The position numbers and the translations under genes were made by a program. Under the pieces are notes generated by a model. That model was not told where the DNA came from. It ran no database searches and saw only the letters and a list, made by a program, of their open reading frames with translations. 64,000 nucleotides of DNA from Escherichia coli (GTDB lineage Bacteria > Pseudomonadota > Gammaproteobacteria > Enterobacterales > Enterobacteriaceae): NCBI RefSeq assembly GCF_044324785.1, contig NZ_CP172127.1. The stretch is one strand, 5' to 3'. Positions within the stretch are counted from its first letter, which is position 1; every line of letters starts with the position of its first letter. Of the stretch, positions 61,402 through 64,000 are shown piece after piece.

Positions 61402-62955
61402 ATGCAAATGATTACCTCGCGACAAAACAGATTATTACGATTCCTTTTACCTCGAAGGGAATATACGACTATTGTTACGATTGCCGGCTATTTAAATGTT
61501 TCGGAAAAAACCATTCAACGTGATTTACGTTTACTTGAGCAATGGCTGGGACAATGGAGAATAAATGTTGAGAAGCGTGCTGGCGCGGGTGTGATGTTAA
61601 GCGCGGCGAATATTGCTGATTTGCTGCATCTTGATCATTTGTTGGGAGCAGAATGTGAAGAGATTGATGGTGTAATGAATAATTCCAGGCGCGTTAAAAT
61701 AGCGTCGCAGTTATTAAGTGAAACACCGAATGAAACGTCGATCAGTAAATTGTCAGAACGCTACTTTATCAGCGGAGCCTCTATTGTTAATGACCTGAGA
61801 GTAATTGAGTCCTGGCTTGCGCCGTTGGGGTTATCATTGATCCGCAGCCCAAGTGGTACGCATATTGAAGGTAGTGAAGGGCAAGTCCGACAGGCAATGG
61901 CATTACTGATTAACGGCATTATTAACCATAATGAGCCGCAAGGTGTCGTGTATTCACGTCTGGATCCCGGAAGTTATAAAGCATTAGTCCATTATTTTGG
62001 AGAAGAAGAGGTGTTATTTGTCCAGTCATTGTTACTGGATATGGAAAATGAATTAAGTTGGTCTTTGGGAGAACCTTATTACGTTAACATTTTTACTCAT
62101 ATCCTTATTATGATGTATCGCAACACGCACGGGAATGCGTTATCAAGAGAAGAAGATCAAACCAGGCAATATGATGAAAATATCTTTAATGTTGCCAGTC
62201 AGATGATTCATAAGATAGAACAACGAATTGCACATACATTGCCCGATGATGAAGTCTGGTTTATTTATCAATATATCATTTCATCAGGTGTGGCGATTGA
62301 TGGACAAAAAGATGTTAGCATTATTTCACATATGCAGGCCAGCAATGAAGCGCGTCTGATTACCTGGCGTTTAATTACGGTATTCAGTGACATCGTGGAC
62401 TGCGATTTTAGTGAAGACAGCGCATTATATGATGGCTTGTTGGTTCATATTAAGCCGCTGATTAACCGTTTAAATTATCGCATTCATATCCGTAATCCAT
62501 TGCTGGAAGATATTAAAGCAGAATTAGCGGATGTCTGGCGGTTGACGCAATATGTGGTGAATCAGGTATTTAAAACCTGGGGTGAGAATGCAGTGAGCGA
62601 GGATGAAGTGGGTTACCTGACCGTTCATTTTCAGGCTGCGATGGAGCGGCAAATTGCCCGTAAACGCGTATTACTAGTCTGTTCAACCGGAATCGGAACT
62701 TCGCATCTACTGAAAAGCCGTATTCTGCGAGCATTTCCTGAATGGACGATTGTTGATGTTATTTCAGCAGCGAATTTATCACAGGTTTTGCCTGACAATA
62801 TCGAACTGATTATTTCGACCATTAATTTGCCTACAGTCACTATGCCGGTCGCTTATGTTACCGCTTTTTTTAATGATGCCGATATTAAGCGGGTCACTGA
62901 AATGGTGATTACGGAAAAATTACATCATGCGACATCTCGGGTCGTTGAAATTTAA
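61402..62955 (+). CDS. PRD-domain transcriptional regulator (BglG/LicR/MtlR-type activator or antiterminator)
   Basis: 517 aa; N-terminal HTH (…GYLNVSEKTIQRDLRLLEQW…), followed by PRD-like and PTS-EII-like regulatory domains. Confidence 0.65.
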   Translation: MQMITSRQNRLLRFLLPRREYTTIVTIAGYLNVSEKTIQRDLRLLEQWLGQWRINVEKRAGAGVMLSAANIADLLHLDHLLGAECEEIDGVMNNSRRVKIASQLLSETPNETSISKLSERYFISGASIVNDLRVIESWLAPLGLSLIRSPSGTHIEGSEGQVRQAMALLINGIINHNEPQGVVYSRLDPGSYKALVHYFGEEEVLFVQSLLLDMENELSWSLGEPYYVNIFTHILIMMYRNTHGNALSREEDQTRQYDENIFNVASQMIHKIEQRIAHTLPDDEVWFIYQYIISSGVAIDGQKDVSIISHMQASNEARLITWRLITVFSDIVDCDFSEDSALYDGLLVHIKPLINRLNYRIHIRNPLLEDIKAELADVWRLTQYVVNQVFKTWGENAVSEDEVGYLTVHFQAAMERQIARKRVLLVCSTGIGTSHLLKSRILRAFPEWTIVDVISAANLSQVLPDNIELIISTINLPTVTMPVAYVTAFFNDADIKRVTEMVITEKLHHATSRVVEI

Positions 62956-62981
62956 TGTCAGAATTTTATGAGGTATGACGA

Positions 62982-63452
62982 ATGGACATAACAAAAATCC
63001 TGAATACGAATCGCGTTATTTTAGATATGCAAGCGACGAATAAAGCGGAGGCGATTGAAGAATTAACTAATCTTCTCAAAAAAGATGGTGCGATCGATTG
63101 TCGGGAAACCTTTATTAAAGATGTCTGGCAGCGCGAAGCGGAAGGCTCGACTGGTTTTGAAAATCATATTGCGATCCCGCATGGTAAATCTTCAGCTGTG
63201 ATTAATACTACGCTGGCAATTGGCCGTACCCGCCAGGATATTCCCTGGGAAACGCTGGATGGCAGTAGCGTGCGCTGTATTATTTTATTTGCGGTACGTC
63301 TTGAAGATCAAAATACCACTCATATCCGTTTACTTTCCCAGGTCGCGGGCGCGCTGGCGGATGATGACATCATAGAACAATTGTTAGTTGAGACGAGTCC
63401 GCAAAAAATCATTGATCTCTTTAGTCAGTATGCACAATCCGATGTCTACTAA
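62982..63452 (+). CDS. PTS EIIA component (fructose/mannitol/Ntr-type)
   Basis: 156 aa; phosphorylation-site motif HIAIPHGK. Confidence 0.75.
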   Translation: MDITKILNTNRVILDMQATNKAEAIEELTNLLKKDGAIDCRETFIKDVWQREAEGSTGFENHIAIPHGKSSAVINTTLAIGRTRQDIPWETLDGSSVRCIILFAVRLEDQNTTHIRLLSQVAGALADDDIIEQLLVETSPQKIIDLFSQYAQSDVY

Positions 63453-63469
63453 ATAACAGGGAGTATATC

Positions 63470-63784
63470 ATGAATATTGTCTGTGTTGCCGCCTGCACGG
63501 CGGGTATTGCTCACACCTATATTGCTCGTGAAAAGTTAATTAAAGGGGCAAAAGCACTGGGCCACACCATTAAAGTTGAAACCCAGGGAACCATTGGTAC
63601 AGAAAATGAATTACAGGCGGCAGATATCTCTGCTGCTGACGTCGTGATTCTTGCTGTAGATGTGAAAATAAAAGGAGAAGAACGCTTCACCAATAAACGT
63701 ATTGTGCGAGTAAAGACAGAGATCGTCATTAAATCGCCCGTTCAATTTCTTGAAAAGGTCGAAAAATCACTGGGAAACAAATGA
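63470..63784 (+). CDS. PTS EIIB component (fructose-type)
   Basis: 104 aa; active-site Cys motif CVAACTAGIAHTYIA. Confidence 0.75.
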   Translation: MNIVCVAACTAGIAHTYIAREKLIKGAKALGHTIKVETQGTIGTENELQAADISAADVVILAVDVKIKGEERFTNKRIVRVKTEIVIKSPVQFLEKVEKSLGNK

Positions 63785-63808
63785 TCCTTATACTGGAGGG
63801 ATCTTAAT

Positions 63809-64000
63809 ATGAAAGAAAATAAAATTCCGGTTTCACAGGAAATTAAAAAACATTTATTAACCGGCATCTCGTGGATGATACCCCTTATTGTGGCCGCCGG
63901 GATATGTATTGCGTTGGGGCAAGTTCTTGGCGGTACAGATGTTGGTGAAAAAACAGGAACAATCCCGTGGATGCTTAATCAGATTGGCGGCTGGGGAATG
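63809..64000 (+). CDS. PTS EIIC component, 5' part (continues beyond window)
   Basis: ATG at 63809 after ribosome-binding site ggaggg; hydrophobic N-terminus (…ISWMIPLIVAAGICIALGQ…). Confidence 0.6.
   Translation, partial: MKENKIPVSQEIKKHLLTGISWMIPLIVAAGICIALGQVLGGTDVGEKTGTIPWMLNQIGGWGM

Follow-up and report, generated by a model that had tools for sequence, protein, structure and literature searches.

Genes between yicI and the end of the window

The window, the whole stretch of 64,000 nucleotides of Escherichia coli DNA that was analyzed (contig NZ_CP172127.1), ends within a group of genes located downstream of yicI. As context, the tRNA-Sec gene selC (57010..57104, minus strand) was identified with ARAGORN and with the Rfam model RF01852 (83.8 bits), and it separates an island with an integrase, to its left, from the core side to its right. 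On the core side, yicJ, a core gene for a GPH-family transporter (57397..58779, plus strand; 460 aa from the RefSeq-style start), is followed by yicI, a core gene for a GH31 alpha-xylosidase (58789..61107, plus strand). yicJ was found in 5423 of 5426 complete E. coli genomes; its mechanically called open reading frame starts at 57340 instead of the RefSeq-style 57397. yicI is the left flank of the slot holding the genes described here, which are called frz for the reasons given below.

All frz genes in the window are located on the plus strand. The first (61402..62955) encodes a PRD-type transcriptional activator of 517 aa that belongs to the Mga/AtxA type, identified with Pfam and NCBIfam. 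It is followed by genes for a fructose/mannitol-family EIIA (PTS_EIIA_2, PF00359; 62982..63452; TIGR00848 127 bits, cut-off 103.5), a fructose-type EIIB (63470..63784; TIGR00829 100 bits, cut-off 76.85) and a fructose-type EIIC (63809..64000), which is cut after 64 codons by the window end and is 363 aa long in relatives. The preliminary description had placed a PRD-type regulator and fructose/mannitol-type EIIA, EIIB and EIIC after yicI, and the open reading frames were indeed found as placed, with their domains confirmed by Pfam and NCBIfam. The lengths of the regulator, EIIA and EIIB in the window equal those in RefSeq genomes, and these three genes are therefore regarded as intact.

The phosphorylation motif AIPH67G (His67) is present in EIIA and the active-site motif AAC9TAGIAHT (Cys9) in EIIB, and the full-length EIIC orthologue of strain ES1 scored 311.5 bits with TIGR01427 (cut-off 157.55). 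With the EIIA histidine, the EIIB cysteine and an EIIC, the latter judged on the full-length ES1 orthologue, the system belongs to the PTS fructose family (TC 4.A.2). FruAB, Frv, Frw, Fry and MngA of K-12 are members of the same family and have the EIIA_2, EIIB-Fru and EIIC-Fru domains in common with frz. However, all equivalog cut-offs of the K-12 fructose-like PTS were missed by frz (EIIA 90.9 vs 151, EIIB 108 vs 135, EIIC 263 vs 426), and the frz PTS is therefore considered a paralogue separate from those of K-12. A dedicated PRD activator and dedicated catabolic enzymes further distinguish frz from these paralogues.

The window holds the regulator, EIIA, EIIB and the start of EIIC; the part of the cluster beyond position 64000 was read in relatives that are 98-99% identical. 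In AR_0017, ES1 and ATCC 11775 the full order is activator, EIIA, EIIB, EIIC, two class II ketose-bisphosphate aldolases, a ROK kinase, a cupin and then yicH, and the cluster has a size of 7.28 kb in ES1. The two aldolase genes of AR_0017 are fused into pseudogenes. The frz aldolases matched the class II ketose-bisphosphate aldolases AgaY, KbaY and YdjI with E-values of about 1e-40. By sequence match in the relatives, the cupin is of the D-lyxose/D-mannose isomerase type; it matched the D-lyxose isomerase Z5688 of E. coli O157:H7 (PDB 3KMH/3MPB) with E = 6e-65, but remained under the equivalog cut-off (271 vs 350). In contrast to the galactitol and N-acetylgalactosamine pathways (GatY, KbaY/AgaY), frz has no GatZ/KbaZ partner, and a PfkB-type 1-phosphofructokinase is also lacking from the cluster.

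Based on what is known of the protein families, phosphate of PEP would be passed via EI and HPr to His67 of EIIA and Cys9 of EIIB, and from there to a putative fructose-family sugar entering via EIIC. It is conjectured on the same basis that the isomerase and the kinase would convert this sugar and that the aldolases would split the product to triose phosphates.

The regulator and its upstream region

Pfam domains of the regulator are HTH_11 (residues 7-63), Mga-HTH (92-169), two PRDs and PTS_IIB (422-498), and the C-terminal domain is EIIB(Gat)-like. AtxA, AcpB and Mga share this domain order, in which an N-terminal HTH and Mga-HTH are followed by a pair of PRDs and an EIIB(Gat)-like domain whose cysteine is conserved (C427 in the frz regulator), so that the frz protein has the Mga/AtxA architecture. 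A position check identified His233, His349, His409 and Cys427 as residues of note; of the four canonical PRD histidines one is a tyrosine in the frz regulator, Tyr291 being found in place of the second histidine of PRD1. Matching PDB sequences were the PRDs of LicT, AtxA (4R6I) and AcpB (9ATX). With the AcpB/EbpR/MafR model only 84.7 bits were reached (cut-off 130), which places the frz regulator outside that subfamily. As for MtlR, ManR and LicR of Bacillus, the gene adjoins the PTS that is presumably sensed. However, MtlR, LicR and ManR carry a C-terminal EIIA(Mtl)-like domain, whereas the frz regulator ends at residue 517, just past the EIIB-like part, and gave no match to PF00359, which again corresponds to the AtxA/Mga architecture.

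Several elements were identified on the plus strand between yicI and the regulator. Sequence comparison showed a hairpin directly 3' of the yicI stop codon, GCCGGATACGA...TCGTATCCGG (61121..61152), which is the counterpart of the hairpin in the 52-bp yicI-yicH spacer of K-12; occupied and K-12-type junctions part right after it. Conservation of the other elements was assessed by aligning nine intergenic regions that represent four genera. Two blocks are conserved across genera, the CRP-site-like TTTGCGAGCATGATCACG (61195-61212; TGCGA-N6-TCACG) and AAATGTGATCTGTGCTG (61227-61243), which contains a TGTGA half-site, and these blocks (61195..61243) are candidate catabolite-control sites by their sequence. 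Further downstream, the same alignment revealed the palindrome CTGTCCGGATTACGGACAG (61280..61298; TGTCCGG..CCGGACA), whose centre is variable but whose arms (TGTCC/GGACA) are the same in all sequences from Escherichia to Superficieibacter. It is the sole copy within the window, and no second copy was found upstream of yicJ, where one was sought as a sign of co-regulation. The palindrome is followed by a promoter-like pair of TTGTTG and TATATT separated by 16 nt (61308..61335), which was seen in the alignment and is sub-threshold; a sigma-70 consensus scan at threshold gave no promoter upstream of the regulator. The TATATT box is kept in all genera aligned, and the poor -35 would fit an activator-dependent promoter, which is a guess at the level of the consensus.

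The first gene product would then be a DNA-binding PRD activator that is switched when the PTS phosphorylates its PRD histidines and, in the EIIB-like domain, Cys427. It would probably act at the conserved palindrome, a candidate operator just 5' of the weak -35, with the CRP-like boxes located farther upstream.

The PGAP/RefSeq product name of the regulator, 'BglG family transcription antiterminator', corresponds to a different reading, in which a BglG/SacY-type RNA antiterminator acts on a leader terminator hairpin at 61280-61298. Its PRDs align with those of LicT, and a terminator scan also scored the palindrome as a terminator-like hairpin. However, this reading is very unlikely. No CAT RNA-binding domain was found in the regulator with Pfam, NCBIfam or PDB sequence matches; its N-terminus carries a pair of DNA-binding HTH domains (HTH_11, Mga) and its C-terminus is EIIB-like, an arrangement shared with AtxA, AcpB and Mga. 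With the LicT and GlcT models the PRD region alone aligned, with 46-65 bits compared to cut-offs of 300-320. Moreover, the hairpin is located upstream of both the regulator gene and the promoter-like boxes, and its arms are invariant and not covarying, which suits a DNA operator. An Rfam search of the window gave only tRNA-Sec and no leader element upstream of the regulator.

Probable correspondence to the published frz operon

The frz operon published in 2009 reportedly encodes an activator of the Mga type, a fructose-family PTS of three subunits, a pair of class II aldolases, a kinase of the ROK family and a cupin protein. It was described in the avian ExPEC strain BEN2908 (Rouquet et al., 2009, J Bacteriol 191:4427) and shares with the window locus the yicI|yicH slot and the absence from K-12. 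In PMC12928451, region GR27 of BEN2908 ('yicH..yicI', 7227 bp, 3991960-3999186 of the chromosome) is given as the frz operon with reference to Rouquet et al. (2009), and GR27/frz is stated there to be present in all ExPEC/AIEC strains compared and absent from K-12. The BEN2908 operon of 7.2-7.3 kb compares with 7.28 kb for the ES1 cluster, the reported gene content is like that seen in the relatives, and no difference in kind from the window locus was found, the window having the first three genes and a fraction of the next. The left junction of the yicI|yicH location lies in the window, the right junction with yicH was found in 1605 genomes, and the site is empty in K-12. It is concluded that 61402-64000 very probably represents the promoter-proximal portion of the frz operon, a chromosomal sugar-utilisation cluster of 7.3 kb between the convergent genes yicI and yicH in ∼30% of E. 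coli; this match is made on position, size and the reference in a secondary description, together with the reported gene content. The locus is already known, and its name, its map position and a partial characterisation date back to 2009. As summarised in passages of PMC12928451 and PMC8777976 that refer to Rouquet et al. (2009), frz promotes fitness in oxygen-restricted late stationary phase, adhesion and invasion, as well as the ON state of type 1 fimbriae. In addition, frzorf4 is in routine use as a PCR marker for avian pathogenic E. coli (APEC).

Distribution and age of the locus

In MG1655, the convergent genes yicI (b3656) and yicH (b3655) are separated by a spacer of 52 bp that holds no other gene, and the K-12 order given in the preliminary description, yicI then yicH, is thus correct. 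The same genes at the same yicI site were found in 1601 of the 5426 complete E. coli genomes (29.5%), where the loci are 98-99% identical to the window region and annotated with the same four genes, and a K-12-type empty junction was found in 3817. Together these two states account for 5418 of the 5426 genomes, among which no other cargo was seen at yicI|yicH. The distal half of the cluster, contiguous with yicH, is present in 1605 of them. The species type strain ATCC 11775, ST131, ATCC 25922 and ST38 are frz-positive, and the carriers include strains whose selC island is minimal or of another kind. The frz sequence of the window itself is 1-2% diverged from every complete genome compared (best match 98.6%). 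Strain HS-02 has lost all of frz except for 266 bp from the start of the regulator, which abut a clipped yicH, and a deletion of frz is thus directly observed.

The preliminary description had suggested a strain-specific insertion on the core side of selC, a claim that was to fall if K-12 or most E. coli carried the same genes at this position. K-12 and about 70% of the genomes lack them, so that the claim is not refuted on these terms. With ∼30% carrying them in the same place, however, 'strain-specific' is wrong, and 'insertion' is doubtful as no mobility genes or repeats were found and the same slot is used in other genera. Between yicI and yicH of AR_0017, ES1 and ATCC 11775 there is no integrase, transposase, IS element or tRNA target, and sequence comparison showed no flanking direct repeats at the junctions. 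The frz cluster does not have the features of an integrative genomic island.

A recent insertion of foreign DNA, perhaps tied to the selC island, would agree with the absence of frz from K-12, with the start of the frz genes only 4.3 kb from the island-bearing tRNA, and with a G+C content of 41.9% in the window part of the cluster (regulator, EIIA, EIIB) compared to 50.7% in yicJI. Such an event is extremely improbable given the identical site in 1601 genomes, some of them with a different or minimal selC island, the lack of integrase, IS element and direct repeats, and a slot that four other lineages or genera also have filled and in which divergence is the same as in the flanks. Furthermore, the window and strain ES1 (ST38) have identical selC islands (100%), whereas their identity on the core/frz side is 98.3% (1.7% different), which indicates that the island and frz have separate histories. 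The integrase (55526-56710) belongs to that separate island, and the frz cluster is unrelated to the island, which lies beyond the tRNA on the opposite side.

The gene order yicJ-yicI-frz-yicH-xanP is shared by Citrobacter, Phytobacter, Superficieibacter and the non-coli Escherichia sp. MOD1-EC7003, and a single continuous blastn alignment to C. werkmanii (78%) runs from selC through yicJI into frz. The pS between genera was 0.53-0.76 for the frz genes and 0.53-0.66 for the flanks; dS is saturated at this distance, which rules against recent transfer from the sampled genera and gives no date for the locus. The G+C content of frz follows the host genus, with 49% in E. coli and 52-55% elsewhere. 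Right-junction spacers could not be aligned between genera and so do not prove a single shared event. A scan of species representatives was incomplete, as it missed the frz-positive E. coli type strain, so that a lack of matches, as in E. albertii, E. fergusonii and Salmonella, does not indicate that frz is absent.

Because mobility marks are lacking, the same slot is occupied in other genera and divergence equals that of the flanks, long residence with loss in K-12-like lineages fits better than insertion. Judged from the sequences, the locus is most likely a presence/absence polymorphism with two states, of which the occupied one would be old and the K-12 one a loss, and the synteny outside E. 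coli likewise suggests that K-12 has the derived, deleted state. More specifically, frz is probably not a virulence-associated region acquired by ExPEC but an ancestral enterobacterial sugar locus at yicI|yicH that predates the split of Escherichia and Citrobacter, and a clean deletion toward phylogroups A, B1, C and E, K-12 included, would have left only the yicI terminator hairpin. If this is true, the conserved promoter blocks, i.e., the 61280-61298 palindrome and the two CRP-like boxes, would constitute a testable operator for the activator. Together with the intact phosphorelay residues, the conserved promoter elements offer handles for finding the frz inducer. The K-12 map is a poor reference for the 'core' order here, as the type strain and ∼30% of the genomes are occupied.

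An old horizontal gain, in which the ancestor of the ExPEC-rich phylogroups (B2, D, F, G) received frz from another enterobacterium by homologous recombination via yicI/yicH and the K-12-like lineages were never frz-positive, is rather unlikely. It would account for the listing of frz in PMC12928451 among regions common to ExPEC/AIEC and absent from K-12, for its association with virulence, and for the 42% G+C of the regulator, EIIA and EIIB genes. Between ES1 and MOD1-EC7003 the dS of frz is 0.11-0.33 compared to 0.07-0.15 for the flanks, about twice as high, and the flank sequences are recombinationally mosaic, which also made flank similarity uninformative for separating frz-positive from frz-negative strains. 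On the other hand, there is no close donor among the sampled genomes, all frz loci outside Escherichia being saturated at synonymous sites like their flanks, and a gain would have to predate E. coli anyway since the slot is shared by several genera and a non-coli Escherichia. The deletion in HS-02 also speaks for loss. Lower G+C content, as in the window part of frz, is a classic hint of foreign origin, and an old gain is the implicit view where frz is listed as an ExPEC-associated genomic region.

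Genes beyond yicI and identity of the cluster

Near the end of the window, the tRNA feature for tRNA-Sec (selC, 57010-57104, minus strand) lies to the left of yicJ (57397-58779, RefSeq-style start) and of yicI, which encodes a GH31 alpha-xylosidase (58789-61107). After a spacer of 294 bp, these are followed by a regulator of 517 aa (61402-62955), an EIIA of 156 aa (62982-63452), an EIIB of 104 aa (63470-63784) and the start of an EIIC gene, of which 64 codons (from 63809) fall inside the window. All genes from yicJ onwards are on the plus strand. The ORF list and domain scans confirmed the PRD regulator and PTS genes that the preliminary description had placed beyond yicI. 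The lengths of the regulator, EIIA and EIIB equal those of their RefSeq counterparts, indicating that the three are intact.

A megablast search with 61108-64000 matched 1601 of 5426 complete E. coli genomes, each with these four genes at 98-99% identity and with this proximal part as a single copy per chromosome. In the near relatives E. coli AR_0017, ES1 (ST38) and ATCC 11775, the type strain, the genes beyond EIIB encode EIIC, a pair of ketose-bisphosphate aldolases of class II, a ROK kinase and a cupin protein of the D-lyxose/D-mannose isomerase family, and yicH comes next. In ES1, yicI and yicH are 7.28 kb apart. The frz genes of Rouquet et al. (2009) reportedly encode an Mga-family activator, a fructose-type PTS of three subunits, a pair of type II aldolases, a ROK kinase and a cupin protein, a list that agrees with the genes found in the relatives. 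In the genome paper on the avian ExPEC strain BEN2908, region GR27 ('yicH..yicI', 7227 bp) is named as the frz operon, crediting Rouquet et al. 2009; every ExPEC and AIEC strain in that comparison has it, and K-12 does not (PMC12928451). The cluster studied here matches frz of BEN2908 in its yicH..yicI slot, size class and absence from K-12, with the distal genes taken from relatives, and it is concluded that it is the already known frz operon. According to published summaries, including a review (PMC12928451 and PMC8777976), frz supports survival in late stationary phase with oxygen restriction and promotes type 1 fimbriae; frzorf4 is a standard APEC marker.

Occupancy of the yicI-yicH junction

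In MG1655, yicI (b3656) and yicH (b3655) are convergent and separated by only 52 bp, so that the K-12 order given in the preliminary description is right and the window departs from it here. The yicI stop codon and a hairpin (61121-61152) are common to both junction types, which part ways directly past this hairpin. The contiguous K-12-type junction was found in 3817 genomes and the distal half of frz joined to yicH in 1605. As empty and occupied genomes together cover essentially the entire collection, the site occurs in two states rather than being a hotspot for varied cargo. Carriers include ATCC 11775, ATCC 25922, O25b:H4-ST131 and ST38, and non-carriers include K-12 and O157:H7. With carriage this wide, the cluster cannot be called strain-specific, as had been proposed.

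In a K-12-like genome (NZ_CP148133.1, 51211-52524), the yicI-yicH interval includes an annotated regulator of the TetR/AcrR family, with ~660 bp extra and the rest of the junction 100% identical; this may be an engineered strain. In AR_0017, the annotation gives the two aldolase genes as a pair of partial pseudogenes (15805-16947 of its locus, L001) and the yicI-yicH interval is ~6.6 kb versus 7.3 kb, which looks like a ~650-bp internal deletion fusing the two paralogues.

Insertion of frz was weighed against its loss from K-12-like lineages. Neither the cluster nor its junctions contain an integrase, an IS element, a tRNA target or flanking repeats. The G+C content of frz tracks that of the host genus. 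The order yicJ-yicI-frz-yicH-xanP is kept in Escherichia sp. MOD1-EC7003, nine Citrobacter genomes (named freundii-group species and unnamed isolates), Phytobacter ursingii and two Superficieibacter species. In C. werkmanii, one blastn alignment of 77.9% identity runs from selC through yicJI into frz, and the synonymous difference per gene (pS) between E. coli and Citrobacter is saturated and alike for frz (0.53-0.76) and flanks (0.53-0.66). The regulator was present in 21 loci in a scan of species-representative genomes that is not exhaustive, as frz-positive ATCC 11775, whose assembly we take to be the GTDB species representative, was not returned with the regulator query; its negatives (E. 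albertii, E. fergusonii, Salmonella) are therefore not readable as absence. In HS-02, a frameshifted regulator remnant comprising the first 266 bp (L025, 5295-5572) adjoins a yicH clipped to 9 bp below its usual length; nearly all of the operon was lost in this strain by a separate natural deletion. It is more economical to assume that frz has long resided at the yicI/yicH slot and was lost from K-12-like lineages. This reading is tempered by a G+C content of only 41.9% in the window's part of frz, by a divergence between ES1 and MOD1-EC7003 that is roughly double in frz what it is in the flanks, by the mosaic nature of the flanks and by the limited reach of the scan. Of the preliminary description, the difference from K-12 and the PRD/PTS genes thus stand, whereas strain specificity does not and insertion is less economical than loss. 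The additions to what is known of frz are the probable status of K-12 as the deleted state and the conservation of the predicted promoter architecture across genera.

Regulator, promoter and predicted pathway

The regulator contains HTH_11, Mga-HTH, two PRDs and an EIIB-like domain. Its N-terminus matches AtxA and AcpB and its middle the PRDs of LicT. The EIIA-like tail of MtlR, LicR and ManR is absent. His233, His349, His409 and Cys427 are retained, and Tyr291 stands where the second PRD1 histidine would be. The domain scan detected no CAT domain, which makes the RefSeq name 'BglG family transcription antiterminator' misleading.

The spacer upstream of the regulator contains blocks conserved in four genera. 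Two of them are CRP-like boxes (61195-61212 and 61227-61243). A palindrome whose arms do not vary (61280-61298) occurs only once in the window, and a weak -35 with a good -10 (61308-61335) forms a pair under the consensus-scan threshold. The 61280-61298 and 61195-61243 blocks are nearly invariant from Escherichia to Superficieibacter, with coding synonymous divergence saturated, and are strong candidates for protein-binding sites, namely an activator operator and CRP-like boxes. Judged from its sequence, the spacer would probably act as an activator-dependent, catabolite-controlled promoter.

EIIA has the phosphorylation motif AIPH67G and EIIB the active-site motif AAC9TAGIAHT. EIIA, EIIB and a full-length EIIC orthologue score above fructose-family NCBIfam domain cut-offs but under all K-12 equivalog cut-offs, and frz therefore encodes a distinct fructose-family PTS. 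The remaining enzymes are encoded 3' of the window and are taken from relatives. Among them, the aldolases are nearest to AgaY, KbaY and YdjI. The ROK protein is nearest to fructokinase in NCBIfam and, among solved structures, to N-acetylglucosamine kinases, and the cupin is closely homologous to Z5688, the D-lyxose isomerase of O157. This gene set points to a pathway in which an imported hexose or ketose would be converted to a ketose bisphosphate and cleaved to triose phosphates.

Variant clusters and the neighbouring selC island

Several clusters lack the ROK kinase gene (Citrobacter L010, L011, L013, L014 and L016-L018; Superficieibacter and Buttiauxella L019-L021), suggesting that some members of the family can do without the kinase or replace it; the gene is kept in Citrobacter sp. 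FP75, Phytobacter, most Kosakonia loci (not L023) and Escherichia. In six frz-positive loci (L005-L007, L009, L023, L024) from Phytobacter diazotrophicus, Kosakonia and a soil metagenome-assembled genome, yicJ/yicI were not detected within 10 kb upstream of frz, indicating a different left flank; in L005 and L006, yicH and xanP still lie 3' of frz.

In the compared stretch 32000-57150, the selC island (integrase 55526-56710) is 100% identical to that of ES1/ST38 over 24.9 kb, whereas from just past selC (57150-64000) identity to ES1 is 98.3%, with 121 differences in 7.1 kb; the best core-side match in the complete-genome collection is 98.6%. The same island thus lies in a different chromosomal background, which suggests that it recently moved horizontally or that recombination ended at selC. 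By the ES1 annotation (L027, 1112-7748; window 33100-39750), the island has a carbohydrate module of its own, consisting of a GH43 glycosidase, an MFS transporter, a xylA-like isomerase and a carbohydrate porin. Also present are PhoX, ISEc8, a phosphoethanolamine transferase and a restriction gene of the phosphorothioation-dependent type. In outline the island appears to resemble the sugar-uptake islands published for the selC site of avian ExPEC (Chouikha et al., 2006).
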